The translations under genes and the position numbers were made by a program. From a virus (lineage: Duplodnaviria > Caudoviricetes), in the IMG/VR virus record IMGVR_UViG_3300033388_005412, positions 139,295 through 203,294 of that record: a DNA stretch of 64,000 nt. One strand, written 5' to 3'. Of this stretch, positions 7,226 through 35,522 are shown one piece after another. Under the pieces are notes generated by a model. The model did not search any database. It had not been told where the DNA came from and worked only from the letters and a program-made list of their open reading frames with translations. The stretch's first letter is position 1; every line of letters starts with the position of its first letter.

Positions 7226-7248
7226 GATAATGTATTACTACCTGGAAT

Positions 7249-17542: not shown

Positions 17543-17830
17543 ATGAAGATTACAGTCGCTGGTATCAAACCGGCTAAGAAAGAGAAGAATGATGGTACGC
17601 CGAATCCTGTGAAGGCCTATGCTGGTCTGCACCTGGGAACCGAGGAAATGCCTAAGATGTGGGGCATTCACGGTATTAAGGTTGTCAAAGGTAAAAACGG
17701 ACTGTTCGTGGCTATGCCTGGTTACAAAAACGGGGATAAGTTTCAGGATCAGGCCCATCCCTTGACTAAAGAAGGAAGAGAAATCGTTACGAATTTGGTG
17801 CTTGATGCTTTTAAGAAGATAAAAGTGTAA
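17543..17830 (+). CDS. spoVG: SpoVG-family nucleic-acid-binding protein (copy 1)
   Basis: VKAYA..IHGIKVVKGKNGLFVAMP..FQDQAHPLTKEGR..VLDAF; start at 17543 after AAGGAGG. Confidence 0.88.
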   Translation: MKITVAGIKPAKKEKNDGTPNPVKAYAGLHLGTEEMPKMWGIHGIKVVKGKNGLFVAMPGYKNGDKFQDQAHPLTKEGREIVTNLVLDAFKKIKV

Positions 17831-17851
17831 GTACAGACTGAGGTATAATAT

Positions 17852-18019
17852 GTGGCCGTGGCGCACTGTGAGGCGTTATATCACTGTAAGTTCTGGGGAA
17901 GAACTCTGATCAAGCTCTCCGGACAACTGCAGTGACGAACAAATAAAGGACAAACGGCAATGTTCCTGTCCAACATGGGACTAAGTGAACCGTAGCAGGT
18001 AAGAATCCTGCCGGCTGCA
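17852..18019 (+). ncRNA. tRNA-like ncRNA A with a large insertion in place of the anticodon arm
   Basis: GTGGCCG/CGGCTGC acceptor-like stem, U, GGCGC/GCGTT D-like stem, TCACTGTA/TGCAGTGA helix, GCAGG-TAAGAAT-CCTGC T-like arm; TATAAT at 17844. Confidence 0.7.
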
Positions 18020-18203
18020 TATAAAAGGAGATAAATAGATGGAATATATGATTACAGCAAATATTGTGTTAGCTTTAGTTAATGTAACAACTTCTAAAGG
18101 CTGGCACACGAGATTGGGGTGGATTTGTGCCGCGCTTTATGGCGCGGGATGGTTATTAGCAAGAATACAGTTGGCAAAAATAATGGAACGATGAATAATA
18201 TAA

Positions 18204-18277
18204 GGGGCGGTGGCGGAATATGCTTTCCGTTAAATGCGGGCTCGTCATTAAGTTGGCAAATCAGAACGGCCGCCCCG
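18204..18277 (+). ncRNA. tRNA-sized non-canonical cloverleaf B
   Basis: GGGGCGG/CCGCCCC stem, U, GGCGGAA/TTCCGTT D-like stem; T-arm and anticodon degenerate. Confidence 0.5.
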
Positions 18278-18302
18278 CAATGGAATTAAGTAATGAATGT
18301 GA

Positions 18303-18464
18303 ATGATGAAAGCAATGTATATGCGGCTTATGGACGAACTCGGCAGAGAGCCGACGGAAGACGAAATGGGCAACGAAAACGCACGGCTAATTGATAAGGC
18401 AAAAGACAAAGCCGACGATGAGGCTTTGCAAGAAAAAGCGGAGGCAAGTAATGGGCTATTATGA
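18303..18464 (+). CDS. small acidic protein, paralog of 38445-38585
   Basis: MKAMYMRLMDELGREPT.DEM..ENARLIDKAK nearly identical at DNA level. Confidence 0.7.
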   Translation: MMKAMYMRLMDELGREPTEDEMGNENARLIDKAKDKADDEALQEKAEASNGLL

Positions 18465-18922
18465 TTATCAGGAAGATGTTGAAATGTCAAAATTTGATGC
18501 ATCACTTAACAGAATGTTTCCCGATGGTAAATTTAAGAAACACAAAAGAGCGAAACATTTTGAGTTAAGTAACGGCGATATAGCGTGTGGTGCTACAAGC
18601 ACAATTGGAAGAAGGTTAAACAGAACTGTTGTTGTAAAAAATGTGACTTGTGCGATATGTAAACATTTAATTAAAAAAGAAACGGAGGCAAGTAATGGAT
18701 AAGACAGCGAGGGATATTTTGAATGAGGCGTTTGCAGATTATAAAGAAGCTGAAGATATTGGGAAAATGGATAAAATTTTTGAGAATACCCTGAAAGAAT
18801 TGCGGCGGCTCTTGCCGAAAAAAAAGAAACCTGTTGTTTTTAATATAAATACGCCGATTAAAGATTACGAAAATAACGGCTGGAATCACTGCCTCAAAGC
18901 GGTGCGGGAGGTGCTGAAATGA
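18451..18922 (+). other. two hypothetical genes (18451-18702, 18695-18922)
   Basis: Both start at the junction CGGAGGCAAGTAATGG. Confidence 0.6.
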
Positions 18923-19335
18923 AAAAGATTAAATTCAGATTACGGAGAGATAAAAAAATTGTTGGTTATGAGAAATGGTATAGTGGCGAAATAGAAAAAG
19001 CTAATCCGTGGTGGTTATATTCCGACGACGGTAAAATTTGGAATCCCGGACATATACCTCACAATCAAAAAGACCAATACACCGGGCTGAAGGACAAGAA
19101 CGATAAGGAGATTTATGAGGGGGATATTGTAAAACAGAATGGAGGCAGATGGTGTAGAAAAGAATATAAGAATAGTATTTATGAAGTATTCTGGGATAAT
19201 GAACACGCACAAATATCTTTCAAACATATAGGCGGTGGTAAAAGCAGTAGTATATTCAGACCTCACACAAGTTGTAAAGATTGTGGACTAAAAATAGTCG
19301 GCAACATCTACGAGAACCCGGAATTTATAAAATGA
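18919..19335 (+). CDS. yopX: YopX-family protein
   Basis: IKFR, QYTGLKDKNDKEIYEGDIV, IVGNIYENPE. Confidence 0.88.
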   Translation: MKKIKFRLRRDKKIVGYEKWYSGEIEKANPWWLYSDDGKIWNPGHIPHNQKDQYTGLKDKNDKEIYEGDIVKQNGGRWCRKEYKNSIYEVFWDNEHAQISFKHIGGGKSSSIFRPHTSCKDCGLKIVGNIYENPEFIK

Positions 19336-19670
19336 CCGACCTCGCAAAGCTATTCCTGTTCGGGTTCGGCGTTATCTGCGGATTTTCCGGGGGCGTATGG
19401 TGGGCGAGGAATAACGTGAGTGACTGCGGCGAGATAAAACAGCCGGAGATAGACGAGGGGGAGGTAGGTATAGGAGGTAAACTATGATATGTGAACGATG
19501 TCAAATGGAATTAGCGTATGCTGAGGGGCGAAAAATCATCTATAATGATGATGAATTATGGGTATGCGCAAAATGTCTTGAAGAAATAAGGCGGAAAAAT
19601 ATAAAGGAAAGTGAGGAAGAAGATAAAAAACAAAAAATATATAGGAAGTAAATATAGAGGAGATAGGGAT

Positions 19671-19931
19671 ATGAGTAAACTTAAAGCGTGTCCGTTTTGT
19701 GGAAAGAAAAATGTACTGTTATATCATCAAGCTGCCGGCAAATGGTATGTTGAATGTAATTGTCAAATTGAGCAATCAACAGAAGAAAAGGCAATCAAAG
19801 CGTGGAACACCCGCTCCGTTGACGTGGCGGAGATTGAGGCGGTGATAAGAAATTATATGACAGAAAATCAATGCTGTATAGGTGACGAACATATAAAAAC
19901 GATAGCGGAGAAGTTGGGGGGTAGATTATGA
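19671..19931 (+). CDS. Lar-like (restriction alleviation family) zinc-binding protein
   Basis: LKACPFCG...WYVECNC...EEKAIKAWNTR. Confidence 0.7.
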   Translation: MSKLKACPFCGKKNVLLYHQAAGKWYVECNCQIEQSTEEKAIKAWNTRSVDVAEIEAVIRNYMTENQCCIGDEHIKTIAEKLGGRL

Positions 19932-21757
19932 AAAAGATTATTTTGATTGTGGCAGTTGTGGTGATGTGTGGGTGTTCACGCTCTTTGAGTATAAACCCAT
20001 TTGACGAAAGCCATAATCCCGGACCATATAGACATCTACTAATAGGAGAAGTAGGGATTGGTCAGCCGACAGAAGAATACAGATTAGATTGTCTTGAAAA
20101 GAAAGTGGACTGGATTATGGAACACGAAGGATATTGGCAAATCAAAGAAGGGACAGTAACGATTAACCATTCACGATATAAAGACTGGATTGTGCCATTT
20201 CTTAACACAGGATATAAATTCAAAACGTGGGCTGAAATCTACGAGGAGGAGCACAATGACAAATGACATAGCATACTTAGGGCAGTTGAAAAAGCAGGAG
20301 GCGGAGATTGATAGGTTGAAGGCGGAGAATGAGAGATTAACCGAAATAATAGAATCAACAGCGAGTGTATTAGACACTGAATGTCCTGATATTGGAGCAT
20401 ATCCAGATGGGCATTGTAGTCTTGTAGAAGGAACAGAACTGTTAACGGCAGAGGTTGCGAAGTTAAGAAAAATCAATAGCGACGTATCTGAAATGTTATC
20501 TGCCATTAGGGAATGTGATAATATAAATATCACAACCGAGACAAAGACGTGGATGGATGCTGTAGAGAAAGTAAACGAACTCCAATCACAGCTCAAAGCA
20601 ATCCGTGAGGTGGCGAGCGTGGATAAGTTAAATAACATTTGTGAAGATATATTTATAAATAACTACCCTATTAGTAGTTGTAGACCATTACCAGAATATA
20701 CAGAATATACCGAGGCAATATCCAAAGAGATACTAAAAGGGGGCGAGTGATATGAGTGATTATAAAAATGTAAAAACTATGAGTGACGCAAAGGCGGGCG
20801 ACTTTCGGCAAGTAAACTATTATTTTTTGCGAAAAGCCGAGGAAGAAATCGCCGACCTCAAAGCAAGTTTGAAAGAGGTTGCCGAGGATAGGGATTTGAC
20901 ATTAAAGGCAAAGTTTCGTGCAGAAGAACGGCTAACCGCCGAGCGTACGAAGTCTGCGAAGTTGGCGAAGCTATTAAAGATGATATTTGGAATAGTAGAA
21001 GATTTTAAACAAGAATTAAAATTATCACCACGGTGGTGCGAACAAGATAAAAGATGGTGTATAAAAGCAAAGAAAGCACTCGCAGAATATAAGGAGGAAA
21101 AATGACGTGGGTTTATATTCAGTCAGAACATACTTCGGCAGGTAGTTTATGGACAGTAGGGTTTTACAGTCCAGATGGAAAATGGCATCCTGAAAGTGAT
21201 CATGAATCTCAAGAAAATGCATCAGAGAGGGTTCATTATCTGAATGGAGGCAAGGGGGAAAAATGAAATTAGAAATTAATGAATATCTGGCAATGGTGTT
21301 AATAAATATAGGCTTAATGATGCTTATAGCGTTAACGATATATTTAACCAAAACAGGATGGCCCTTGTTGGGATTATTATTTATCTGCACATCAAGTAAA
21401 GGAGAAAAATAAATGACTAAAAAACAGGCAATAGAAGAGTCGATTAAGCATTATAAAAGAATGATTAAATGGGCTAAGAAACAACCGCAAAACGACATAG
21501 CACTTTTGATGGATATGGATACTAAACTTGGTGAAACTTACGGTGCGGATGATTGCCCAATGTGTGTAAAATACAGAATTTATCCTAGATGTAATGTGTG
21601 TCCACTTGGCGCAAAATATAATGATGGATTTTCCTGTACGCCAAGTTGGCGCGCTGTTTTTCACTCTAAAACATGGGGAGAGTGGGTGATACATGCTGAA
21701 GTTCTACTTAAAGATCTGAAGGGTTTGATAAAACCATCAAAAAAGAAGAATATATAA
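19928..21757 (+). other. hypothetical gene run (19928-20266 lipoprotein-like, 20256-20750, 20752-21105, 21413-21757 and smaller ORFs)
   Basis: SDs and overlaps; lipobox-like VMCGC in 19928; coiled coils in 20256 and 20752. Confidence 0.6.
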
Positions 21758-21777
21758 ATATGATTTTTTAAAAAAAA

Positions 21778-21809
21778 ATGTCGCAAAAACATAACAGATT
21801 TTGCGACAT
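21778..21809. promoter_or_regulatory. perfect 11-bp inverted repeat upstream of spoVG copy 2
   Basis: ATGTCGCAAAA-N10-TTTTGCGACAT. Confidence 0.6.
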
Positions 21810-21840
21810 GGTGTTGTGTTGAGAGAATAAGGAGGATAAC

Positions 21841-22140
21841 ATGACTGAAGACATGAAGATTAGTGTTGCGGGTATGAAGTTGGCGAAAAGTGAGAAGAAC
21901 GATGGAAGTCCGAATCCCGTAAAGGCTTACGCGGGGCTTCATTTGGGAACTGAAGAAACGCCTGAAATGTGGGGCATTCACGGTATTAAAGTTGTTGAAG
22001 GTAAGAATGGATTGTTTGTGGCAATGCCGGGATACAAAAATGGAGATAACTTTCAAGATCAAGTACATCCCCTGACTAAAGAAGGAAGGGATATTGTAAA
22101 TAATTTAGTGCTTGATGCTTTTAAAAAGATGAGGAAATAA
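21841..22140 (+). CDS. spoVG: SpoVG-family protein (copy 2, close paralog of copy 1)
   Basis: NPVKAYAGLHLGTEE..MWGIHGIKVVEGKNGLFVAMPGYK shared with 17543. Confidence 0.88.
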   Translation: MTEDMKISVAGMKLAKSEKNDGSPNPVKAYAGLHLGTEETPEMWGIHGIKVVEGKNGLFVAMPGYKNGDNFQDQVHPLTKEGRDIVNNLVLDAFKKMRK

Positions 22141-22145
22141 AAATT

Positions 22146-22313
22146 GTGGCGGTGGCAGAATAGAAATGCACAAGCAGCCTGTATGGCATTGGTATCGCGA
22201 TGAAAGAGAGAAATTTTATTTGCGATTGCGAGGTGACGAAACCGATACTAACCGCGGTGAAATATCGGGCAACTACCCGACGGGAAAGTCGTGACCAATT
22301 CCTCGTCCGTCTT
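22146..22313 (+). ncRNA. structured ncRNA C with tRNA-like 5' end
   Basis: GTGGCGG-TGGCAGAATAGAAATGC start; TTGGTATCG/CGATACTAA helix; TCGGG-CAACTA-CCCGA hairpin; CCGTCTT 3' end. Confidence 0.55.
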
Positions 22314-22329
22314 TAATTTTTGTAAAAAT

Positions 22330-22455
22330 ATAGCGGTTATATGTTAAGAAAAAACATAAGGCAGGAACAGGGGAATTATTAGCTGGTCGCGAACAGTATG
22401 ATAAGCCTATGTCCTTTAAAAACACACACCGCGGGTGAAAATCCCAATCCGCTAT
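22330..22455 (+). ncRNA. structured ncRNA D
   Basis: ATAGCGG/CCGCTAT closing stem, TATGTT/AACATA hairpin, GGG-TGAAAAT-CCC T-loop-like hairpin. Confidence 0.45.
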
Positions 22456-22541
22456 TATGTTAAGTTGGTGATACACAATAGAGGAATTGGATGCTTATGG
22501 AGTTGCACACAGCGCAATCACAGAATATAAGGAAAATAAAA

Positions 22542-25500
22542 ATGAACAATAAATTTGCCTGGTATGATGATCCTGTTTATATAAAGATGTGTAAAAAAGC
22601 GGAAGAAATTCAGACAATATGGGATATTGATAAAGCGTTTGGCGATTTTGTTTTCATATATGGAGATAATAATAATGAAACACACATATGTAATGGATAT
22701 AAAGAGTGGGATGATGAATGCAAACATAAGTCTGATGAATTAACATGGCTTCCCCGGCAGGACCAGCTACAGAAAATGTTTTTGAAAAAAGATAATTCTG
22801 GATATGAGATAAAATCATTAAAAAACTATGGTTGTTTTGTTTGGTTAAATAAAAAATGTATGGAAAGCTACGAAAGAAATTTGGTAAGATTCATAGAACC
22901 ATATCCTAACGGAGAAAAGCTTTGGCTGGTTTTTGTGATGGAAAAAAAATATAACAAAATCTGGTCTGGTGAAAAATGGGAGGAAAAATGACCGACAAAC
23001 AAACAATTAAGAAACTGAAAGCGGAAAATAAGAAATTAAAAGATCAGATTTTAGATTGGAAATATGAGCTTGGATATTTCTGTGTTGGTAAGGCAACCCC
23101 GAAATCCGTGCGTAAGTTCGTGATGAAAATTATTGATCAGCTTTATTGTGAAAAGAAAATTGATTTTAAAAAAAATTTAAAAAAAGAATTGGCTGATTTA
23201 CGAATAACACACAAATTAAGTAAATATTATGCTAATAGTAAACGGCTTGAAGCCAAAATGAGGTTCTGATGGAAAATATAAATAAAAATGTAAATGTTGA
23301 TTTTGATAAATCTAAGAAAGAAAGAATAAAAGAATTGGAATATATTAATGGTAGACTCATTGATACAGTTGTAGATTTATGCCAAATTGCCACTAAGTCA
23401 GGTTGGGCGGAAGCTATGACCGGTCGGCAAATTGTGTTGAAAAATGCGCTTGATTTGATTGAAAAAATTACATATAATAAGGACGATAAAGAATGATAAA
23501 GATGTGTTCCGTTGAAAGCGGTGTTTCCTCACCAGCACATCTTATCATTCCAAAATGGAGGTAAAAAATGAAAAAAATAAAAATCAAATTTACGAAAGAT
23601 GATCGTGGAAATTGGTGTGAGCCTTCCACAAAAAATGTTGTTGAAAAACTCAATGAAATTGTAGAATGGATTAATCAACAAGAAAAAACAAAAGCAGATG
23701 CACGAGAAATTATAAAAGGAAGAAAAAAATCAGGTAAATGGTCTAATACAGTTTGGCACAGGAGGGATAAAAAATGAGATGTAAACAATGCGGAAAGGAA
23801 TTTCAGGATGTTGAGATAAAATCAGACAAACCTACAGACAGAGGTGACGGCGTTATGTATAATTCTGTCAGTTATAATAGCAAGCCGGTCTGTCCTAATT
23901 GCGGGCATGATAATTCTCCAAGAGTATATTTATAATAAAGTCAAAGGGAGTAAAACATGAATGATAAATTAAAAATAGAAATTTTGAAAGAAAGGATACG
24001 TAATGTAAAAAAAATCAGAGACGCAATAATAGACAGCGAAATAGTACCATCAGTATGCGAAGACAGTGAACAGCCTGAATGGACAGTTGGAGAGGCGCAG
24101 GAACTAGCTGAAGCAATAGTAAAGAGATTGACATGATAGTCAACGAATATATTTATACTGATAGAAAAAAGATGGAGCTTGCGTATGTTCGCGCTGTGGT
24201 CGATAGTTACGGAAGAACTTCTCATTTCAAATATGATTCTAAAGAGTATATGGATTTGAAATCATATAAAGCAGCTTTGGAAAATGAGAAAAATAATGCT
24301 CATCTTTTATTAAATTATGCCGGAACAATGACGGCTAAAAAATATGCTGATAAACATAGGAGGAAATAGTGATATGTAAGTCATGTGATTATTGTGGTGA
24401 AGAAGACGGTACGGTAGTAATACCGGATCCGAATGAACCATTTGGTGGTAAAACATGGCGTGTTTGCGGAACATGTGAAAAGGTTATCGAATATCAAAGA
24501 GGTTTATCTCTTGCTCAGATAGAGAAAGATGAAAAAATGGAAAAATATTTTACTAAAAAACTCTTTATATTATCTAAAGAAACGGGTAAGCAGATTTTGT
24601 GCGCATGTATTGATAATACTGAATGTAATGAGATAGTATTTGGTGATGGCGAAAGAGGAATTTGTTAATCAGGAGGATAAATGACTTATATAGCATTTGT
24701 ATTGATGGTATTACTGGGCATTTATGCCAGTCTTAAGAATGCAAAAAATTCTAATGAGATATCGGAATTACTAGGAAGAATTAATTCATATAAAAAACAA
24801 CTTGAAATGCGGCAGGGTGTTTCATATCATATATGGGCACTTAATAAACTTCTTGATATGGACGAAAAGATAGCTGATATAATAACCAGCAGCAGTTTAT
24901 GGAATTGTGGAAAAGATTCACATAATGCGCTGTCTGAATTAACTATATCAATTTCTGATATGATAAAAAATGTTATAACCGAGGAGGAGTGAGAAAAATG
25001 AAAACAGATTTAAAAGCTGAACTAACAGAAGAAATTAAAAAGAGAAAGTATAAGTATAAAACACTTATATTAAAAAAGACAAAATTAGAAGGTTGGATGA
25101 TTAGTGAAATATGGTCTGGACAAGACACGAGACCTGATGTAAAAATAGACGATAAAGGAAATATACGTATAACATTAAAGAAACAATTGTGAAATAATAA
25201 CGCAAGGAGAAAAAAAATGGGAATGTATGACGATTTTATAGGAAGATGTCCGAAGTGCGGTAAAGAGGCCTATTCACAAACTAAGCTGTTCGAGTGTGCC
25301 ATGATTGATATAAAAGAGGGTGATTCTATTGGTGTCGCATATCATATAGATGATATGGATATGTGCTGTAAAAATCAGTGCGAATGCGGTGCTGATCTTG
25401 TTGCCAAAATTAGAGATGGTAAATTTATGGGTTTCACGAATAATAAACCTGACCATGTGGAAGGATTATGGGGCGGCTTAAGTCCAGCGGAGGCAACAGA

Positions 25501-26353
25501 AAATGAAGAAAAGTAAAAGCAATATCAGATCCAAGATAGACAAACTTCTTGATGAATTAGTATCTGTATCAATGAAGCAAGGTATGGATTTGGAAGGCGC
25601 AAAAACAAATTCACAGAAAATGTCGATAAGTTTTGAAGAATTAAAAGTTATTTGTTTTAATTTAGATAGTTTAAACGACACTTGTGGTATCAATAATAAT
25701 AGTAAATGTAATATTAAAAACTGCCCATATGGAAAAGGTTAAAGTGCAGCACATAAGAGGTAATGAAGAGGATTGTATTTGTCATAAACCGAATGAAAAA
25801 CACACAGAACGATGCGACGCATACAGATTATCGGAGTTCTTTAAGAAATGCGCGTCTGTTATGTTGAAACGTCCAAAGCATACAAAGGAGGATAGATGAT
25901 TTTTATTTATTTTATAATAGTAATGATTTGCATATTAATGTTACTATTTTGTATCAGTAAACATTTTGCGAATTTTACAATAATTAAAGATTATATGTAC
26001 TTTGTTGATGATTCATATGTTAATTTCGGATTGATGCCGTGGATTGTGAAATATGGCCCATATATATCCATATATTGGATCGGTTCGGAATTAACTATAA
26101 GATGGAGAAAAAAATGAAAGATCAATTCACATATGATTACTGGATGAATGAAGATATAAGTAAAGCGGATATAAAGAAATTTGTGAAGTCAAAACTCTTA
26201 TGGAATATGGGAAAAATACAGCAGTCTGAAGATGAAATAAACAGATTGATAGCTTTCCAATATGCGGTAAGGGATAAAGGCCTGACTAAACTATTTATAA
26301 AATGCCAAAATGAGATGATGAAAGAATTAAATAAAGAAGAAATGAAAGATTAG
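22542..26353 (+). other. run of about 14 small hypothetical genes
   Basis: e.g. 22542-22991, 22988-23269, 23269-23496, 23568-23777, 24133-24369, 24369-24668, 24681-24992, 24989-25192, 25217-25516, 25503-25742, 25896-26117, 26114-26353; SDs, overlaps, several CxxC pairs. Confidence 0.6.
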
Positions 26354-26365
26354 AAAGGAGGTTGA

Positions 26366-26725
26366 ATGAATATTGTAATGTATTTTGATGGTAATAAAAA
26401 CTCGTCCGGAACATCATGCAGTTACAGACTGCAGGCTGGGAAAATGGTGAGACGAGAAACCATAAAGCTGAGTGATATGACTGTACCGGCCGCCGAATAT
26501 AATGGTCTTATAAAAGGTTTAGAAGTACTTAAAAAAGAATTTTATCCTAAGATAGATCTTACCATATACGGTGACAATAAAGTTGTGATTAACCAAGTTG
26601 CTCAAAGATGGGAAACAAAAAAAACTTATTTAAGACAGTACAGAGATGAAGCTCTGAATATATTGGAGAATCTTCATAGTTATAGGATTTTCTGGAAACC
26701 GCGCGGTGAGAATAAAGCGGGATAA
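26366..26725 (+). CDS. RNase HI-like protein
   Basis: YFDG, AAEYNGLIKGL, IYGDNKVVINQV, WKPRGENK pattern of short RNase HI domains. Confidence 0.75.
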   Translation: MNIVMYFDGNKNSSGTSCSYRLQAGKMVRRETIKLSDMTVPAAEYNGLIKGLEVLKKEFYPKIDLTIYGDNKVVINQVAQRWETKKTYLRQYRDEALNILENLHSYRIFWKPRGENKAG

Positions 26726-26824
26726 TAGGAGGAAAAATGGGCATGGGTGTAACTGATTTGGAACTATTATGGAATAATATGATAGAAGAAGGTACCACCA
26801 TAGGAAATATAGGGAGATTGTTAA

Positions 26825-27424
26825 ATGAAAAAAGGAACATGGATTACAAAAGATGGCATTGTCAAGAAAATAAAGAATATGACATTAAAACATTTAGAAA
26901 ATGTTGAAAAAATGTTAAGCAAAAAAATTTCTTATATGGAAGACAATAAAATTCCGATGATTTCTGACTTTTCGCCGGGTTTATATTATCCTAATTTTAT
27001 GAATGTTTTTATTAAAAGAAATGAGATTATAGAGGAAATATGTAAACGTGAATTACATGATATTGGTGAATTAGAAATGATTGAGACATAGGAGGAGAAA
27101 AATGATTTTTATTCAAAAACTGATTTTTGAGTTGTTATTAAGTTATCCAACATGGTTGATGGTGATTGATATTATATTTACATCAGCTATTGTTATAGCT
27201 GCTGGTTACATTATATTTGCAATAGTGAGGTATAAAAAATGAAATTTAAAGTTCAATGGGAAGAACAGAGGTCTATCATAATCGAGGCCGATACCGCGGA
27301 TGCCGCTGAAGAAATGATGATGAATGGCGAATTTGATGGTAAAGACGTCGAATCCGGAGAGTTAACGTCGATGCCTGAAGCGTATGAATTGAAGGATGAA
27401 GAAAAATTTAGGAGGAAAGAATGA
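26825..27424 (+). other. small hypothetical genes (26825-27091, 27239-27424)
   Basis: Co-directional ORFs in the operon; 27239 overlaps the spoVG-3 start. Confidence 0.55.
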
Positions 27425-27987
27425 ACATTAAAGTAAGAAGAATGGTTCCGCACACAAGCGGAAAGATTAAAGCGTTTGCTGACATAACAATCGGCGATAC
27501 ACTTGTAAAGGGGTTTAGAGTTGTTGAGGGAACTGGTGGCAAAGATGATTTTATAGGCTTGCCGAGTATTAAAGGCAGTGACGGGAACTGGTATGCTAAT
27601 TTTAAGCCCGGCGAAACTCTTATGAAAAGCATAAATGATGTAATTTTCAAATCATATATAGATTTGGAACCACAGACCAACTTGCCGCTTAATGATAAAA
27701 AAGCGCCAAGTGATATAGCAATACTTTCACTTGATGCTGAAAAATCACTGTATAGTGACGCAACGACATTTTATGGAGAACCGGTTAAATATTTCGCTGA
27801 GGGAAATGTCAAGGCCTATGATTTTATGGGCTATCGTTTCATGAGACAAAATCCTGTTAAAAAGGACAAGGACGGTAATTTGTCAAAATGGGCGCAGATG
27901 GTTAAGGATGGCGATAAAGTAACCTGGGTTGTCCAGGGTGGAGTTTATATTGGGCGTGTCGTAAACTCGGTATATCAGCAGTGCTAG
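27421..27987 (+). CDS. spoVG: SpoVG domain fused to an unknown C-terminal domain (copy 3)
   Basis: GKIKAFADITIGDTLVKGFRVVEG..FIGLPS..DGNWY; about 100 extra residues. Confidence 0.75.
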   Translation: MNIKVRRMVPHTSGKIKAFADITIGDTLVKGFRVVEGTGGKDDFIGLPSIKGSDGNWYANFKPGETLMKSINDVIFKSYIDLEPQTNLPLNDKKAPSDIAILSLDAEKSLYSDATTFYGEPVKYFAEGNVKAYDFMGYRFMRQNPVKKDKDGNLSKWAQMVKDGDKVTWVVQGGVYIGRVVNSVYQQC

Positions 27988-28043
27988 TATAATGGAATCG
28001 GCTTGATTTCGGTTTCCGTATATCAAGTTACATCATTCTGTTA

Positions 28044-28123
28044 TGCGAACGGTGGTGGCGTGGTAGCCTGACATCGTTGAGCTTTCCAAGCTCGGATGTC
28101 GCAGACCAACTGCCCACCTCGCA
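28044..28123 (+). ncRNA. cloverleaf ncRNA E with elongated arm ending in a tRNA-Gly(UCC)-type anticodon stem-loop
   Basis: TGCGA..GGTGG/CCACCTCGCA, U, GGC-GTGGTA-GCC, U, GACATC/GATGTC + TGAGC-TTTCCAA-GCTCG, GCAG-ACCAA-CTGC. Confidence 0.75.
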
Positions 28124-28167
28124 CTGTGAAATAGAATTTGGAGGAAAAAAATTGAAAAGGAGGAAAA

Positions 28168-28816
28168 ATGACTTTACCTAAATTGATTGGAATGAATGCA
28201 ATCGAATTTCAGAAATGGAATGATGAAGGTGATGAGGGGATAAGATCATTAAGTATTCTGTATTATCTGTATATGCTGAATGTTCAATCAAAACAAATTC
28301 GCCATGACGTTAGAGAGAATAGTGAAAATGTCGAAAATATTTTAAAGATTTTGGACAAATTAGAAATTAAAGCTAAAAGAGAGCCCGTTATGCTGTCTAC
28401 TGATAAAATGGATGCGTTAAATAAATTGATAGCAGGAATGGAAAAGATACAATTGAAAATAGGAGGATGAATGTCATTGATAAAAATTAAAGAACCGGAT
28501 GAGCAATGTATGCATCCGGAACATAATCCGCCAATGCATATTTATTTAGAGCCTGGAACATATGAACATACTTGTCCAGCGTGTGGTAAAACTGTGGTTT
28601 TTGAAATTCCGCAAATTACAATTTAAAGGAGGAAAAATGGAGTATGATGAAGTGAAAATCAGAGTTCCTAAAGTAGGAAAGGGTATTAGTGATATGTCAA
28701 AACTGGTCGCCGTGTCTGTTGCGAATACAATAGGTGTCGGTCTGGCGGTTGTTGCTGACAAACTGATTAATTTTGGTAAAGAAACTGAAAAAGAAGGAGG
28801 TGAGAAAAATGATTAG
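28168..28816 (+). other. three small hypothetical genes (28168-28470, 28471-28626 with CPAC, 28637-28816)
   Basis: AGGAGG SDs. Confidence 0.6.
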
Positions 28817-29054
28817 TGTTAAAAGACTAACGAAACTTAAAGATGCCGAGAACAAAACAAAGGCTATGGTCACGCTTGATACAGGTGATTTCCTTTTGAG
28901 CGGCATAAGAGTTGTTGACGCTGGGAAGGGCCCGTTTGTGTCCATGCCCCAGAGAAAGGGAACTGATGGTAAGTATTATGATACCATACATCCTACGTCA
29001 GACAGAATGAAAGAGGATATTAATAACGCGGTTCTCGCGGAATTTAATAAATAA
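28809..29054 (+). CDS. spoVG: SpoVG-family protein (copy 4)
   Basis: KTKAMVTL..LLSGIRVVDAGKGPFVSMPQRK..DGKYYDTIHP..INNAVLAEF; start at 28809 after AGGAGG. Confidence 0.88.
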   Translation: MISVKRLTKLKDAENKTKAMVTLDTGDFLLSGIRVVDAGKGPFVSMPQRKGTDGKYYDTIHPTSDRMKEDINNAVLAEFNK

Positions 29055-29061
29055 AAGGTTA

Positions 29062-29090
29062 TGCGGGGGAGAAAGGGTTTCTCCCCCGCA
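29062..29090 (+). terminator. strong 12-bp hairpin after spoVG-4 (terminator-like, poor U-tract)
   Basis: TGCGGGGGAGAA/TTCTCCCCCGCA. Confidence 0.55.
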
Positions 29091-29299
29091 ATTAAAAAAA
29101 AAGGGGGATGCGATCAAGATTAATCCGATTGAAATTGTTACAACATTAATAATTGAAGGAATAATACTGGGAATAGTTGTCAGTGTATCGAAACCGATAA
29201 CTAAATTAATTGAATCAATTTACACTAGAAAAAAGAAAAAATTATCTGATGATAACGTAGCGGCATGCGCCGTTGTAATAGACAATTAAGGAGAATACA

Positions 29300-29691
29300 A
29301 TGAATAGTTTAAATCCCGTTGAGTCTCTATCAGCTCTTATTGTACAAGGCATTGTATTGGGATGTGTTATTTCAATAGCTATTCCAATAAGCAGATTAAT
29401 AATGAAAGCTGAATTTGAAGGATATAAAAAAGTAAAAAAACTGATGAAGAAAGAACAGCTGGCTGTTGGGGGGGCATAATGTTCGATTTTTTGGAACCGC
29501 TAATGGCATTTGATATGCCTAATTTACCGTTTGAAGAATATTGGGAGCATATTTCTGATAAAATAGATCAAGCATATAAAACAGGCATGTATAAAAGCAG
29601 ATGTTTCTCTGAACAGGGTGGCGCTGGCAATGAACAGGCCGCAAAAGATTTATTCGATTTACTCAGCACAAAATCAAGTATATTCGGATAA
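29300..29691 (+). other. small genes 29300-29479 (TM peptide) and 29479-29691
   Basis: AAGGAG SD, TAATG overlap. Confidence 0.55.
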
Positions 29692-29702
29692 GGAGTTAAT
29701 TT

Positions 29703-30137
29703 ATGATTAAATATATTAATGGTGATTTATTCACTTCAAAAAATTCATTAGCCCATTGCATAAGTAAAGATTTTAAACTAGGTGCCGGCATTGCCAAAAC
29801 ATTTAGAAGGAAATATATCAAGGAAATTTTAAAAGCAAGAAATGAAATGATTGACATTGAAAAATCGCTTGTTGATGTCGGCAAATGTCTGGTTGCTGAT
29901 GTCGGCAGTTGCTATGTTTTTAATCTGATTACAAAAAAGTTTTATTATGAAAAACCAACTCTCAAATCTATGGAATCGGCATTGGAAAATATGTTCGCGA
30001 AGGCGGAAACAATTAATGTTGAGACAATCGCAATGCCCAGAATAGGGTGTGGACTTGACCGATTAAAATGGAACGATGTTGAGAAATTAATTATTAAACA
30101 CCAGGGAAATATTGATGTCGCTGTTTATAGTTTATGA
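29703..30137 (+). CDS. macrodomain protein (TARG1/DarG-like ADP-ribosylhydrolase)
   Basis: GDLF..SLAHCISKD..LGAGIA..F, FNLITK, IAMPRIGCGLDRLKW. Confidence 0.88.
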   Translation: MIKYINGDLFTSKNSLAHCISKDFKLGAGIAKTFRRKYIKEILKARNEMIDIEKSLVDVGKCLVADVGSCYVFNLITKKFYYEKPTLKSMESALENMFAKAETINVETIAMPRIGCGLDRLKWNDVEKLIIKHQGNIDVAVYSL

Positions 30138-30143
30138 AAACAT

Positions 30144-30216
30144 AGGGATGTCGTTCAATTGGACAGGACCGGTGATTTTGAGTCACCTAATCGAGGTTCG
30201 AATCCTTGCATCCCTG
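30144..30216 (+). tRNA. trnQ: tRNA-Gln (anticodon UUG), no encoded CCA
   Basis: AGGGATG/CATCCCT acceptor, GTTC/GGAC D-stem, GGTGA-TTTTGAG-TCACC, CGAGG-TTCGAAT-CCTTG. Confidence 0.95.
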
Positions 30217-30404
30217 TTTATATCTGATGATGCAAAAGGAGATAAATCATGAATGAAACATATTGTCCAAAATGTAAGAATTCATTGAAAAGTGTTGGAT
30301 TTACCTGTGCGGGACAGAGTCTATATCACTGTCCTATCTGTGAGCGCTGGTGGGAAATAAAAGAACTTCCTAATGAAGATGAATCAACAAAATAAGGAGG
30401 ACGA

Positions 30405-31787
30405 ATGAGTATTTGCGAAATATGCGGTAACCGGATAGATAAAGCTACAATGGAAAATTATGGAAATACAATAGGAGTATGTCATAAATGTTTATATAAA
30501 GAATTTACAGTTGAAACAATAACCCGAGCTGATTTAACTGTATTTATTGGTACAGGTGTAAAGAAATTTACTGATAAGGATATGAAACATCTTGCTATGT
30601 TAATATGTGATTTCCAAGCCGATGAAGGATCATTTATTGGGATAGAACAAATGACTAAAATTGCTCTTAAGCAAATTAAAAGAAAATTGGTATCGCAAAA
30701 GGGGAAAAAATGAATTGGTTATGTTATATTGGTGGTGGAGTTTTAGTTCTTTTATTGTCATTTTACATAAGTACGTTTTTAGCATCAACATTTGTTGAAA
30801 ATTATCATGAAGAGTTGAAACATTTTAAAATAACATACAGAAAACTTTTTATACTTGGTTCTATGCTGATGTGGATATGGATTTGCTGGACATTTGTATA
30901 AGGAGGAACAATGGCTATAATGGGAATCGTGCTTATAATTGCCGGTCTCATAGCAGCTATATTCTGGGTGGTTGAGCTGTCTATGGGTGTTAAAGCCAGT
31001 AAAGAAATATTACGGAAAGTTAACGGGAATATATTCCGCGGAATATTGGCATGCCCTAAAATTTTATTATCATTTTCGGCGTTTATCATTGATGTTATAG
31101 TAACTATGTTCTGTACTACAGTATTTATTATAAGCGCCTCAATTCCCGGCATGGCGATTTCATTGCTGATGTCGGATATTATATCAGTGTGGATTTTGTA
31201 TGAGTTTAAGGAGGAAAAATGACAAGTGGTATGATTTATTGGTTAACGAGGTTGGACGGAATTGTGACATTTGCCGCAGTGGTCATGGCGCTTTTTACAT
31301 TGGCGGCGATAATATTGGGAATTATTGGTGGTATAGAAAATTCTGAAAATACGAAAAAAGCAGCAAAAAAATGCGGAATTATTGCCGTTATTACGGCTAT
31401 TATAGGAACGTTTGTGCCAACATCAAAAGAAATGGCGGCGATTTATTTGATTCCAAAAATAGTAAATAACGAACAAGTTAAAGATGTGCCAAGCAAAGGA
31501 ATGGAAATACTGAATTTAAAACTAGATGGATGGATAGATGATATGAAAGGAATAAAGGGCAAGAAATAATGAAAACAGCAACTTTATTAACTGATTATAC
31601 GATAGAAAAAGAAGATTTTACTATAACAATAATACCGAAAGGAACTGTTTTATACGAGTGTTATGATGGTGGTGGATTTTCAACCGTCGGCGATGGTGAG
31701 ATAAAAAGTGATTATTTAATGACAATAGGACGTGTTTATGTTAACAACAATCCGCATGTGTTTTCAATGGGAGAAACAAATGGATAA
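30405..31787 (+). other. hypothetical genes 30405-30713 (paralog of 59276), 30710-30901, 30911-31222, 31219-31569 (membrane proteins), 31569-31787
   Basis: SDs; hydrophobic segments; C..CL.K.F...I.RAD....D.DMK.LA shared with 59276. Confidence 0.6.
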
Positions 31788-32292
31788 AGATGAAAAAATT
31801 GAATATTTAAATGACCAAGTGGTTGATTATCAACACGAGGTTCACATGCTTAAAGAGAAAATAAAAAAAATGGTTAAAACATTATCTGAAAAAGGATTAA
31901 AAGTCAGTAAAAAAAGATTCAATAATAACGGAGACGGCACGGTGACAGACACGACAACGGGACTGGTGTGGTTGCGTGATCCTGCCGATTACAACGTTAA
32001 GCCACAGGAATGGCAAGAGGCAATTGACGGGTGTAAAAATTTTAGTTTTGCTGGATACAAAGACTGGCGACTGCCAGCGGCGCAGGAATTGTTTAACATA
32101 GTGGATTTTACGAAGAAAAAGTATCCGCTGATTAACGACGTGTTCATTTGTCCTGAATACACTTATTGGACAACGCAGGAATATGTGTCACATACTATTT
32201 ACGCTATGCTTATGTATTTTAATACCGGTGGCGCGACCTACTACAATAAGACTAATGCGTTTTTTGTTCGTCCGGTGCGAGGAGATTTGTGA
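31780..32292 (+). CDS. DUF1566 (Lcl C-terminal) domain protein
   Basis: RFNNNGDGTVTDTTTGLVW, W.EAI..C..F.FAGYKDWRLP..EL, VRPVR. Confidence 0.85.
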   Translation: MDKDEKIEYLNDQVVDYQHEVHMLKEKIKKMVKTLSEKGLKVSKKRFNNNGDGTVTDTTTGLVWLRDPADYNVKPQEWQEAIDGCKNFSFAGYKDWRLPAAQELFNIVDFTKKKYPLINDVFICPEYTYWTTQEYVSHTIYAMLMYFNTGGATYYNKTNAFFVRPVRGDL

Positions 32293-32293
32293 A

Positions 32294-32820
32294 ATGGGTG
32301 AATACGCTGATGAATTAATTTTTAATGGATTTAGTGATATGGGAGCATCAGATTATTGCGAACAAATACCGTTTGTTATTAACCCATTTTATCGCAAACC
32401 AAGAAAAGCCAAATATGAATATAAAAAAATAGTCAGACAAACTGATAAGGCCTGGCTTATCGAATTTTCTGGTGGTGCCAAAAAATGGTTACCAAAAAGT
32501 AAATGTGATATAGATAAAAAATTTATTTATATTCCAGAATGGCTCGAAAGAAGAATAATTATGATAGAATTACGTAATGAATTACGACGTGGATATATTT
32601 GAAAAATAAATAAGGAGGTGGAATGTCTAAAACATTAAACTGGATAAGGAAGAAAATTCATTGTCCTTATTGCTGGGACATAATAAATATTAATATTGAT
32701 ATTTGCCAGGAACCTTTGGCATATAATGAAAAAATAACAGGAGGTGAACGCACATGTCCGAATTGTAAAAGAATAATAACTGATCAGAACCTAAAGCATT
32801 GTCATTTTATCGAAGAATAA
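32294..32820 (+). other. two hypothetical genes (32294-32602, 32623-32820 with CxxC pairs)
   Basis: 32294 contains TDKAWLI..WLPKSK..IPEWL; 32623 has GGAGG SD. Confidence 0.6.
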
Positions 32821-32832
32821 TAGGGAGAGCGC

Positions 32833-34779
32833 ATGAAAATAATATCAAATTTAATAATTCCTGAATTCATATGTGAAGACGGTATATTGACAAGTTATGA
32901 GAAATTACATCCGAAAATAAAACAGGATGTGAGAAAACACTGTCAGCATGTAAGTGTACTGACTTACAGACCGTATATGCGCCGAATTTTAGATAATTCA
33001 TTTACTGTAATGAAATTCGGAGGATCATTTATCGGCGATGAATATTTAGAATTAGTAAAGAAAGCTAAAACTAAAGGATACATAGCACAATGGAATGTCA
33101 AGAGAACACATGGCGGCGGCCGAGGTGCTAAATCGTGGGGCAAAATAGAATTTGCCAGAACACAGATTATAGAAGATATCGTTAAAGAACTGGGTTTTCA
33201 TGAAGAATTCATGAGATTACCGATGGGTAAAAGAATGAACCGCATACAGAAAATAATAGGCGAAATGCACGATTTTCAGATAAAGCCCAGAGTTAAAATA
33301 GTTGGCGATATGGACAAATTCGAGGGATTGCTTTTCGGACGCATAAAATGGATGAGGAAAAATGGAATTGAGCCGGGTGCTAAAACAACTTTAGCAACTA
33401 AGGGGCTTATATTCCCGACGCCAAAACATATTAAATGTGATGCTGACTTACTTGTTCCTGCAGGCGAGAATAAATTCGGCTTAAATGAGGAAAAGTTATC
33501 CGAATTAATAAAATGGATACCAAGATTAACGCCGGGATCACTATTCAGTAGAAATCTTAGACGGAAAAATTCAGATATCCTAGGACGAAATCCGCAGGCA
33601 AAATGGGACCTTCAGGCATTTCTTGATTTTATACCTGAAACTGATTTAACGGAACATAAAGCTGTGTTTGAAGGTAAATTAATGAATGATAAAATTGTCG
33701 ATACATTATTCGGATATAAACAAAAAGGTGAAAAGAAATTAAGATTTCATGGTATGCGGTTGAAGGCCAAAGAATCATTATTTCATCCTGAAGTATGGAA
33801 TGAGGCAGTTAAAACATTAGAAAAATGGATTAGCAAATCAATGCAGCCTGAAGTAAAAGGGCTTTATGGTGTTGTTATGCCGATAAGTCTGTTGAAAATT
33901 ATAAATGAAGAGAGCCATGAATTTGAGGCGTATGTTACAAGGTTTCCATGGGTTACGCCGATAAGAACAAAAATAGCATTATGGAAAGATATAATATTTG
34001 TTCCGGATGATTTATGGAAAGCATTCGGCGGAGATTATGATGGTGACCAAGGGGCCGCGTTTTATAAACATACTATGAATACAGGATTATTATGGAAACG
34101 TGACAAAGAATGGCTTAAGCGTATAATGACACTTCCTGAGAAAGAAGATGATGCTTCAAATAAAAGTGAAGATGAAGTTATCGCGATACAACTTGATCAG
34201 TACGCATATTGCGGACGTATTTATAATAGTGGAAAGATTGTTGTTGACGCGGCGAGAATGGAAGGTTGGGGCCAAAGAGAAATCCAGGAACTGGACATGA
34301 AAATAGCAGCAACTGATGTTCAGCCGTATATAGACGGCTTTAAATATAAAGCCGGTGTAAAACCCTTGAGTGTTTATGAACTTGCTGATAAATATTGTGT
34401 GTCAAAAAAATGTGTTGGCAAAGTGAAAACATATTTTAACGCATTAAGAGGCAGCAAAAGCGGAATAGAACTTGTGGTTGCTCTCTCGAAATTCGCACAT
34501 CCGGAAAGTAAAAGTTTCTATGAAAGAATTGTCAGCAAATTTAAAGAATTCCGTAAAGGTGATTATAAGGAAGTTAACAAAATTCCTATTGATATGGAAA
34601 AGGCGATTAAATATAGTTATGTTAAACACAGAGATGACTTGGACTCAAGATATTTAAGTTTTGAAAAATATTTAAAAACCAATGAACTTATTAACGGCGC
34701 TATAAGAAATTGTTTTGACAGGCGGGATGTCAGAATGGCAAGATTTATACACGAAAAGAAAGAACTTGAAAAATCATAA
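32833..34779 (+). CDS. putative single-subunit two-barrel RNA polymerase (paralog 2)
   Basis: KFEGLLFG, GAKTTLATKGLIFP..ADLLVP, QPEVKGLYGV, VTRFP, IFVPDDLWKAFGGDYDGDQGAAF, YIDGFKYK; colinear with 8037-10022. Confidence 0.8.
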   Translation: MKIISNLIIPEFICEDGILTSYEKLHPKIKQDVRKHCQHVSVLTYRPYMRRILDNSFTVMKFGGSFIGDEYLELVKKAKTKGYIAQWNVKRTHGGGRGAKSWGKIEFARTQIIEDIVKELGFHEEFMRLPMGKRMNRIQKIIGEMHDFQIKPRVKIVGDMDKFEGLLFGRIKWMRKNGIEPGAKTTLATKGLIFPTPKHIKCDADLLVPAGENKFGLNEEKLSELIKWIPRLTPGSLFSRNLRRKNSDILGRNPQAKWDLQAFLDFIPETDLTEHKAVFEGKLMNDKIVDTLFGYKQKGEKKLRFHGMRLKAKESLFHPEVWNEAVKTLEKWISKSMQPEVKGLYGVVMPISLLKIINEESHEFEAYVTRFPWVTPIRTKIALWKDIIFVPDDLWKAFGGDYDGDQGAAFYKHTMNTGLLWKRDKEWLKRIMTLPEKEDDASNKSEDEVIAIQLDQYAYCGRIYNSGKIVVDAARMEGWGQREIQELDMKIAATDVQPYIDGFKYKAGVKPLSVYELADKYCVSKKCVGKVKTYFNALRGSKSGIELVVALSKFAHPESKSFYERIVSKFKEFRKGDYKEVNKIPIDMEKAIKYSYVKHRDDLDSRYLSFEKYLKTNELINGAIRNCFDRRDVRMARFIHEKKELEKS

Positions 34780-34782
34780 GGG

Positions 34783-34812
34783 TTTACAAATTGGTAAACT
34801 CTACTGTATAGT
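34783..34812 (+). promoter_or_regulatory. sigma70-type promoter
   Basis: TTTACA-N18-TATAGT, then GGAGG and ATG at 34830. Confidence 0.55.
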
Positions 34813-34829
34813 AAACTTGGAGGATAATT

Positions 34830-35111
34830 ATGTCTATGAAACAGTCAGATGAGACAGAAGAAACAGCAAGTGAGATAATTTTATTAAAGAAACAAATTAA
34901 CAGATTAAAAGATGAAAATTTTGAATTGTCAAAATATGTAGTTGGAAATGATAAAGAAACAACAAAAGAATTAATTGCTTATAAAATTAAGTTGCAGGGA
35001 AAATATGATTTTTTAGTTAAGTTATTTATAGAATTATCAAAAGCGTTTAATTCAATAACTGAGAATGTTAATTTAATTAAGGAACAGTTTTCACAGGAAA
35101 TTATGGAATGA
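34830..35111 (+). CDS. coiled-coil hypothetical protein
   Basis: GGAGG SD; heptad-rich. Confidence 0.6.
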   Translation: MSMKQSDETEETASEIILLKKQINRLKDENFELSKYVVGNDKETTKELIAYKIKLQGKYDFLVKLFIELSKAFNSITENVNLIKEQFSQEIME

Positions 35112-35162
35112 TATTGCAATAATATGCATTATTTTGCAATAAGGATTTTGTTATTGCAATAA
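35111..35162. repeat. three near-palindromic 12-mers at exact 20-bp spacing
   Basis: ATATTGCAATAA, ATTTTGCAATAA, TTATTGCAATAA at 35111, 35131 and 35151. Confidence 0.75.
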
Positions 35163-35220
35163 CATGCAACAAGATTCAAATTGACGGTATAACATTTTTA
35201 TTATAATATATAAATAGAAC

Positions 35221-35341
35221 ATTCCCGGTGGGGTGAGACCCTGATGGATGCAGCTCCTGAAATTATGGAGAATACTCAACACCTTAGGATTGTAAAGGTT
35301 ATAAGTGTGGGTTGAAATCGCAAAGTCATTTGCTCGGGAAT
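35221..35341 (+). ncRNA. cloverleaf ncRNA F
   Basis: ATTCCCGG/TCGGGAAT, U, GGG-GTGAGA-CCC, CTCC-TGAAATTAT-GGAG, GCAAA-GTCA-TTTGC; TTGACG and TATAAT-like boxes upstream. Confidence 0.7.
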
Positions 35342-35404
35342 TAGTAGCTCGTTCACCATGTGTGAAAGGAGTACGGATATCGTTTAATTACGATGTCTGA
35401 TTTT

Positions 35405-35514
35405 GTCCCGGTGAGGTTGTACTCTGACGGATTAGACCTTGAAACTATAGGTTATCCTTCCGTGTGATGTTTTAACGTATAAGGTGAAGTTGCGGCCGAC
35501 TAAGCTGCCCGGGC
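35405..35514 (+). ncRNA. cloverleaf ncRNA G (homolog of F)
   Basis: CCCGG/CCGGG, U, GAG-GTTGTA-CTC, ACGGA/TCCGT with ACCT-TGAAACTAT-AGGT, GCGGC-CGACTAA-GCTGC. Confidence 0.7.
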
Positions 35515-35522
35515 TTTACTAC

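Follow-up and report, generated by a model that had tools for sequence, protein, structure and literature searches.

tRNA-shaped RNAs of a phage with four spoVG genes: evidence for two phage-restricted frames around hypervariable inserts

Introduction

Does a phage that carries several spoVG genes pair them with RNAs of their own? The question is raised by the last 64 kb of the 203,294-bp single-contig virus record IMGVR_UViG_3300033388_005412 (Duplodnaviria; Caudoviricetes). In this stretch of 64,000 nucleotides (bases 139295-203294 of the record; hereafter the window, with positions counted from its first base), spoVG genes are followed by sequences that fold somewhat like tRNAs. The SpoVG proteins of Listeria, Borrelia and Staphylococcus are known to bind RNA or DNA, and a preliminary description of the window had treated seven such folds, elements A to G, as one family of noncanonical cloverleaf RNAs coupled to SpoVG. 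We find instead two phage-restricted frames, in which covarying helices surround hypervariable inserts and which have no conserved protein neighbor. As far as the sequences allow us to judge, the elements are most likely tRNA-mimicking, processed and stable scaffold RNAs rather than parts of a dedicated SpoVG-RNA system, an explanation that we consider probable as a whole.

The record has direct terminal repeats and is rated complete. Its GC content is about 35%, and the plus strand carries nearly all genes. As part of the same explanation, we read the region as an operon-dense stretch of a jumbo-phage genome, where tRNA-shaped scaffold RNAs are probably encoded in the spaces between small open reading frames (ORFs). 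Searches for relatives by means of SpoVG found none in viral contigs; a protein search returned a single contig, L001, and a metagenome scan gave one match at 38% identity. L001 is 6 kb long and syntenic with about 12.7-19.5 kb of the window, at 70-90% amino-acid identity. Apart from it, no close relative was found in phage, viral-contig or metagenome collections, and covariation among true orthologs of A to G refers to the comparison with L001.

Searches for known RNA families and for tRNA-like shapes

The motifs named in the preliminary description, closing stems, a single U, and D-like and T-like hairpins, are indeed present in A to G where it had placed them. It had also called these RNAs noncanonical and without a named family, and the database searches agree. 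Rfam, applied to the window at gathering and at permissive thresholds, matched none of A to G at E <= 10 (element E gave nothing even in a 131-nt search), and ARAGORN called none of them; neither program called a tmRNA in the window. When introns were allowed, ARAGORN still called none of A to G and, on this genome, recovered neither A nor a further element, H, which is described below. At an 80% threshold, it made scattered implausible calls, none of them on A or H among the 78 calls listed out of 84.

A generic descriptor of the shape, in which a 7-bp closing stem is followed by a U and a hairpin and a second hairpin abuts the 3' strand, found 55 instances in the genome and 30 +/- 4 in shuffled genomes, so a tRNA-like shape alone is weak evidence. 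The strict form of this descriptor was passed by A and F only. A stricter scan, which demanded a T-loop-like arm of 5 bp and 7 nt beside the closing stem, recovered A, the real tRNAs and the new element H.

A tRNA-Leu-type frame with a hypervariable center

Element H lies outside the window, at genome positions 5854-5971 (L125:455-572), 133 kb before the window, and has a layout like that of A. The D-arm motif shared by H and the L001 ortholog of A was used to search IMG/VR contigs. The search yielded 42 distinct members of what we call family 1, which are 82-555 nt long and combine a near-invariant frame with a hypervariable center. The frame consists of a 7-bp acceptor helix, U8, the D arm GGCGGAAUGYAAAGACGC, U48, the T arm GCAGG-UUCAAAU-CCUGC and, usually, A73. 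In place of the anticodon and variable region, the members have 32 to >250 nt, which are different in nearly all phages: shared sequence was seen in 7 of 861 pairs of centers. The mean z-score of the minimum free energy (MFE) of the centers was -1.2; all MFE z-scores given here compare the fold of an element with those of its shuffles.

As a control for circularity, the elements were redefined by the sequence motifs of their D and T arms alone, and the flanking heptamers were then tested for pairing. All seven positions paired in 39 of the 42 members and six of seven in the other three, while none of 378 shifted-register controls reached seven. The closing stems comprise 20 distinct helices, with three to four Watson-Crick pair types at 6 of the 7 positions, in agreement with RNAalifold; only position 7-66 is confined to G-C and A-U. 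U8, A14, A15 and U48 are invariant. A73 is present in 31/42 members, a U at position -1 likewise in 31/42, and an encoded CCA in 8/42.

The covariance model of family 1, R2, was built without any sequence of this genome or of L001. It found H, which has an exact copy of the D-arm motif, with 57.7 bits (E 4e-13), the best score of a family-1 member in this genome. Family 1 is restricted to phages, and its motif is almost absent from cellular genomes: in representative genomes for 185,579 species of bacteria and archaea, only two true members turned up, on small contigs of metagenome-assembled genomes. H itself stands directly 3' of a 98-aa gene without Pfam or PHROG match, whose product has an Ala/Pro-rich tail ending in DEESPW.

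Within the window, element A (17852..18018, plus strand) is a 167-nt tRNA-shaped RNA with an MFE of -60.7 (z -3.94), which we regard as a diverged member of family 1. Its 7-bp closing stem GUGGCCG/CGGCUGC is followed by U8, a D arm of 4-5 bp, a structured center of about 115 nt, the T arm GCAGG-UAAGAAU-CCUGC and then A73. The D arm, GGCGC-ACUGUGAG-GCGUU, has the position and the stem of family 1 with another loop. The center forms a long irregular hairpin and has no 5-bp/7-nt anticodon arm at the standard elbow distance. The element begins 21 nt after the preceding stop codon and ends 20 nt before the next start codon. Its direct R2 score is 19.6 bits (E 0.003-0.01), and because this score is weak, the assignment to family 1 rests mainly on the syntenic ortholog at L001:3323-3435, which R2 finds with 42 bits (E 3e-9) and whose D arm reads AGCGAAAUACAAAGAUGC. 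Between A and this ortholog, five of the seven closing-stem pairs differ and all seven are still paired. Covariation of the stems, already claimed from the window alone, is thus seen in this comparison, in the family-wide helices, and in five compensatory pairs between F and G (below). A match of R2 and another covariance model, R1, at 13314-13385 was rejected, as it lies in an apparent continuous ORF (by our own translation) and has no T arm.

Most family-1 members, A and H included, have no anticodon stem-loop. ARAGORN called none of the 10 family-1 loci tested with it, and the Rfam tRNA model matched 3 of about 17 scanned member loci. The Rfam tRNA threshold of 29 bits was passed by L011 (39.5 bits) and L058 (49.4 bits), both CAU, and by L017 (32.3 bits), all three with an anticodon-type 7-nt loop; the scanned loci gave no other Rfam match.

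Some family-1 loci show arrangements of their own. On contig L121, which has a cluster of 17 Rfam tRNA matches, a 121-nt tRNA call at 6981-7101 (49 bits, with an insertion of about 50 nt) is immediately followed by a family-1 element at 7105-7228 with a possible UAA anticodon-type loop. On L005, a different tRNA-like element (6445-6540; T arm GCAGG-UAAAAAU-CCUGC) stands in tandem just upstream of a family-1 member, and both are preceded by genes for a protein of 294 aa with a P-loop-like GTGGVGKTT motif and for one of 277 aa with a stretch rich in Ala and Pro. On L171 (plus strand, 1567-2121), a family-1 5' module and the matching 3' module are 555 nt apart, with an apparent ORF of about 100 aa, read by eye, between them; the frame may sometimes bracket a protein-coding gene, or these may be halves of two different elements. 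Finally, an orphan family-1 5' half occurs directly downstream of an RNA ligase gene (PF09414, E 3e-13) at L009:~2013 (minus strand) and L004:10012, and no matching T arm or 3' strand was found in the 230-650 nt inspected.

A second frame with complementary loops

Element E (28048..28121, plus strand; z -2.76) represents another family. Its closing stem GGUGG/CCACC, extended by GCGA/UCGC at 28044-28125, is followed by a U, the hairpin GGC-GUGGUA-GCC, UGA, a 6-bp helix with a stem-loop, and the hairpin GCAG-ACCAA-CUGC. The stem-loop that tops the 6-bp helix, UGAGC-UUUCCAA-GCUCG, is an anticodon stem-loop of the tRNA-Gly(UCC) type, so that the arm has 11 bp overall. The D-like and the T-like hairpin sequences of E were used separately to search other phage contigs. 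They led to at least 26 members of family 2, which are 68-141 nt long and have 26 distinct closing helices. In these, the closing helix is followed by G-U, GGC-GUGGUA-GCC, UGA, a covarying central helix with a variable distal part, and then a 3' module of GCAG-ACCAA-CUGC, C and the closing helix. The 3-bp D-like stem also covaries (GGC/GCC, GGG/CCC, GAC/GUC, GGU/ACC). The family-2 covariance model R3, made from 13 other-phage sequences only, gives E as its sole match in the whole genome, with 60.4 bits (E 1e-12), and both modules of E are identical to the consensus.

The two loops of family 2 are complementary to each other (UGGU/ACCA), and we propose that they may kiss and so mimic the elbow of a tRNA. 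In L206, L218 and L228, the variable center contains a T-arm-like hairpin (e.g. GGG-UUCGAUU-CCC). The inserts of family 2 can thus be pieces of tRNA, as in the Gly anticodon stem-loop of E. We found no Rfam model of family 2 and no description of it in the papers searched, and it appears to be new. The idea of one family for A to G did not survive these comparisons: R2 and R3 do not cross-detect, A and H are separate from E, and B, C and D are weak.

Further elements of the window

As had been described, E, F and G have a common layout: the closing stem leads through a U into a 3-bp hairpin, which carries a GUNNNA hexaloop and is followed by UGA. Element F (35222..35340, plus strand; z -0.57) is composed of the closing stem UUCCCGG/UCGGGAA, U, GGG-GUGAGA-CCC, UGA, a center and GCAAA-GUCA-UUUGC. 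Its paralog G (35406..35516, plus strand; z +0.14) has GAG-GUUGUA-CUC and GCGGC-CGACUAA-GCUGC at the corresponding places. In both, the closing helix ends in G and a 5-bp hairpin abuts the 3' strand, which completes the layout of family 2. F and G are about 60% identical, with 5 compensatory pairs among 16 predicted, and each has a pair of complementary loops (UGA/UCA in F, GUUG/CGAC in G). Their pattern had no match in viral contigs. Altogether, F and G are probable distant relatives of family 2. Two other resemblances were dropped for poor motif fit and lack of an Rfam family, namely a hammerhead-like CUGAUG in F and a likeness of the 5' parts of E and F to the Alu domain of the signal recognition particle. 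A TTGACG-17-TATAAT motif just upstream of F was read by eye, the automated promoter and terminator scan being too noisy in this AT-rich DNA to delimit transcripts.

Element B (18204..18276, plus strand; 73 nt; z -1.94) scores 18.8 bits with R1 and 15.2 bits with R2 (E 0.05). It has the closing stem GGGGCGG/CCGCCCC and a family-1-like 5' part (U-GGCGGAAU), and it lacks a T arm. L001 retains only its first ~20 nt. B is probably a decayed copy. Element C (22146..22248, plus strand; z -0.25) has a 5' part like that of B (GUGGCGG-U-GGCAGAAUA) and no convincing 3' half; its scores are 11.7 bits with R1 (E 0.24) and a nonsignificant 8.1 bits with R2. A 42-aa ORF (MHKQPVWHWYRDE...) at 22166-22294 overlaps it, and C may be a decayed remnant or may instead belong to this ORF and be coding rather than RNA. 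Element D (22330..22456, plus strand; z -1.56) consists of the closing stem AUAGCGG/CCGCUAU around about 110 nt. None of the models R1, R2 and R3 matched it, and nothing else supports its membership in a family. By z-score, A and E stand out among the seven elements and B is marginal, while the folds of C, D, F and G cannot be told from those of shuffles.

The spoVG genes and their neighborhood

All three SpoVG genes of the preliminary description were confirmed by Pfam PF04026: spoVG-1 (17543..17830, plus strand; 95 aa; E 7e-15), spoVG-2 (21841..22140, plus strand; 99 aa; 84-85% identical to spoVG-1) and spoVG-3 (27421..27987, plus strand; 188 aa, a SpoVG domain with a C-terminal extension; E 1.6e-7). 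A fourth had been missed. It is spoVG-4 (28809..29054, plus strand; 81 aa), found with an E-value of 2e-10 by a SpoVG hidden Markov model built from the other three. What follows spoVG-4 is not a cloverleaf but a perfect 12-bp GC-rich hairpin (29062..29090), after which comes an A-run and no U-run.

The placement of an element within about 60 nt after each of spoVG-1, spoVG-2 and spoVG-3 is real, as it holds for three of the four paralogs and is kept in L001, where spoVG is 80% identical; nevertheless, the case for C and D is weak, and no such element comes after spoVG-4. Beyond this lineage, the coupling of SpoVG to these RNAs as a general system found no support in co-occurrence, an outcome that the preliminary description had itself named as refuting its idea. 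Among other-phage loci, SpoVG was present in the examined flanks of 0/41 family-1 and 0/16 family-2 members. In faecal phage contigs, what comes after a distant spoVG gene is a terminator-like hairpin or the next gene, with no tRNA-like RNA and no tRNA call there. Near family-1 loci, no recurrent neighbor gene of any kind was seen. In the present genome, H, F and G are not adjacent to spoVG, and the RNA downstream of spoVG-1 (A) is of another family than the one downstream of spoVG-3 (E). Moreover, spoVG-1 and spoVG-2 are recent duplicates, and the copy runs into the first bases of the downstream elements, so that these adjacencies are not independent. Duplication of a cassette of spoVG plus RNA can explain the adjacency within the lineage. 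Overall, the position beside spoVG appears to be a local peculiarity of this lineage of phages and not a general protein-RNA system.

Among the other features of the window, a canonical tRNA-Gln(UUG) at 30143..30217 (plus strand; ARAGORN; 52 bits in Rfam) is the only standard tRNA. Three further canonical tRNAs (Thr, Met and Leu on the minus strand; ARAGORN) lie elsewhere in the genome, which makes four in total. Downstream of F and G, a gene at 35554..36240 (plus strand) had been named a sigma gene. It matches phrog_1740 weakly (E 5e-4), which agrees with that name, but it has no Pfam match and hence no Pfam sigma domain, and we call it putatively sigma-like. Two ORFs of about 650 aa are located at 8037-10022 and 32833-34779, the second without Pfam match.

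Discussion

How might such RNAs be made, and what might they do? Gaps of 6-22 nt separate the elements from the ORFs on either side, and no terminator intervenes; co-transcription with the neighboring genes is therefore probable. The constant frame would mimic the acceptor/T minihelix and the elbow of a tRNA, and host RNase P and 3' tRNA-processing enzymes would excise the RNA, with CCA added where it is not encoded. Since the family-1 frame keeps all that RNase P, RNase Z and the CCA-adding enzyme recognize, its members would be excised as stable tRNA-like particles. Such a particle could display the variable insert, and its excision would also split the transcript into the spoVG mRNA upstream and a separate mRNA downstream. 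We infer the processing, the stability and any activity of the inserts from sequence features.

Several observations weigh against this explanation. Family 2 shows no bias toward U(-1), A73 or CCA, which makes tRNA-type processing less likely for it. Both of its loops are invariant, so covariation gives no support to the UGGU/ACCA contact, and RNAalifold, which does not model pseudoknots, prefers a nested rod-like helix for this complementarity; local covariation of the D-like stem and the members with a 6-nt T-like loop favor the cloverleaf over the rod. R3 does not detect F or G, whose folds do not exceed shuffles in stability. The E-value of A with R2 is similar to that of the coding false positive at 13314. 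Furthermore, three of the five element-bearing intergenic gaps in this phage follow spoVG, which chance explains poorly.

The last point would be natural if this lineage had a SpoVG-RNA ribonucleoprotein, with each paralog binding, or being regulated by, the RNA just downstream. By a rough estimate, there are about 5 element gaps among some 330, so that finding elements after three of four given spoVG genes would be rare by chance. The arrangement retained in L001 and the known binding of RNA or DNA by SpoVG in the three bacterial genera named above point the same way. Against it stand the loci of both families in other phages, whose examined flanks contain no SpoVG, as well as H, F and G away from spoVG and the plain hairpin after spoVG-4. 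The case is further weakened by the recent duplication behind spoVG-1 and spoVG-2 and by the different families of A and E, which follow different paralogs. We regard such a ribonucleoprotein as unlikely, though not negligibly so. Decaying tRNA pseudogenes, functionless relics of a former tRNA cluster, would explain other parts of the data: the missing T arm of B and its ~20-nt remainder in L001, the lone 5' half of C, the orphan 5' half in L004 and L009, and a D arm clearly derived from tRNA-Leu in a phage that still has four canonical tRNAs. Relics, however, are not expected to keep perfect 7-bp helices repeatedly while their interior is replaced. In A, H and E, strong purifying selection acts on the frames, which show compensatory changes in dozens of phages that are not related to one another, and the centers are on average more structured than shuffles. 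A relic origin of this kind thus seems rather improbable to us.

The elements could also be functional decoding tRNAs with very large insertions, resembling a variable arm or an intron, that are tolerated or removed. This would suit L011, L058 and L017 with their Rfam scores and 7-nt anticodon loops, the several members within tRNA clusters (L007, L121) and the Gly(UCC)-type loop in E. Nevertheless, A, H and most other members lack an anticodon stem-loop altogether, and the loop in E sits on an 11-bp arm in an RNA whose T-like loop has 5 nt. ARAGORN called none of the tested loci, and its intron setting missed A and H in this genome. An intron reading was rejected in particular, because the flanks of the inserts are not conserved like exon halves and the inserts match no known Rfam intron family. 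We hold decoding tRNAs to be very unlikely. Chance folds or ordinary parts of untranslated regions, such as terminators and leaders, were suggested by the ~30 instances of the generic descriptor in shuffled genomes and by the z-scores of C, D, F and G, which lie between -1.6 and +0.1. For A, H and E, this explanation is refuted by E-values of 1e-9 to 1e-13, which models built from other phages gave for H, E and the ortholog of A, and for F and G it has to face their 5 shared compensatory pairs. As an account of the whole, it is hardly credible.

Standard annotation overlooks such genes, ARAGORN having called none of those tested and the Rfam tRNA model 3 of about 17, even though they are conserved with compensatory changes in dozens of unrelated uncultured phages. 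This suggests that the tRNA frame has been put to new use by phages, as a natural scaffold for RNA expression, in parallel to a trick of the laboratory, and the variable inserts would then be a large unexplored pool of phage RNA domains. The focus accordingly moves from SpoVG to the RNAs, and the two covariance models and the member lists make the question testable. A bolder idea is that phages use two independent frames, one from Leu-tRNA and one from kissing loops, as a general platform for expressing and displaying swappable RNA domains, some of them pieces of tRNA. These could act as baits for host defenses that target tRNA or for tRNA-binding enzymes, with SpoVG proteins as dedicated partners in this lineage. 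That all of this should hold jointly is a long shot.

Comparison with known systems

The SpoVG-RNA interactions of Firmicutes and Borrelia resemble the present case in that SpoVG-domain genes here adjoin structured RNAs. By contrast, the association described here is confined to one phage lineage, and we know of no SpoVG ligand that is tRNA-shaped.

Other RNAs reach a tRNA-like L-shape from noncanonical parts, among them the 3' tRNA-like structures (TLSs) of viruses, mascRNA and YrlA-type Y RNAs. The proposed loop-loop contact of family 2 would take the role of the D-loop/T-loop elbow, as in elbow-type tRNA mimics. None of the TLS, mascRNA and YrlA-type Rfam families matches A to G. Plant-virus TLSs differ in forming the 3' ends of genomes, and in YrlA the ends form a Ro-binding stem and not an acceptor stem.

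In the tRNA-like domain of tmRNA, a large non-tRNA domain is enclosed by an acceptor/T-arm module built from the 5' and 3' ends, much as in family 1, and A even has G3:U70 and A73. However, G3:U70 is not conserved: L001-A and most family-1 members have G3-C70. The D region of family 1 is a Leu-type stem-loop, not the D-loop analogue of tmRNA. No conserved tag reading frame was noticed, with no systematic search for tag frames made. With its smallest centers at 32 nt and G3:U70 unconserved, a tmRNA-like reading of family 1 was rejected.

The frame of family 1 is closest to class-II tRNA-Leu (RF00005). The two share the 7-bp acceptor stem, U8, the Leu-type D arm (UGGCGGAAU...AGACGC; compared with the canonical tRNA-Leu of L121), A14, A15-U48, the 5-bp T stem with the UUCAAAU loop and, in 31/42 members, A73. 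LeuRS recognizes A73, A14 and A15-U48 and ignores the anticodon. Family 1 departs from tRNA-Leu in the D loop, which has GY instead of G18G19, and in the anticodon arm, which is absent or has an unrelated insert of 32 to >250 nt in its place; moreover, neither A nor H reaches the Rfam threshold for a tRNA.

Functionally, the species 1 and 2 stable RNAs of phage T4 (rnaC and rnaD; NC_000866) come closest to the elements. There is no sequence kinship: a part of rnaC scores 17 bits with R2, close to T4 tRNA-Ile, and rnaC has neither the Leu-type D-arm motif nor a family with hypervariable centers. Nevertheless, T4 encodes these small and stable RNAs in line with its tRNA genes, and rnaC ends in a tRNA-like T arm and acceptor helix, which is likewise a tRNA-type frame on a non-decoding RNA.

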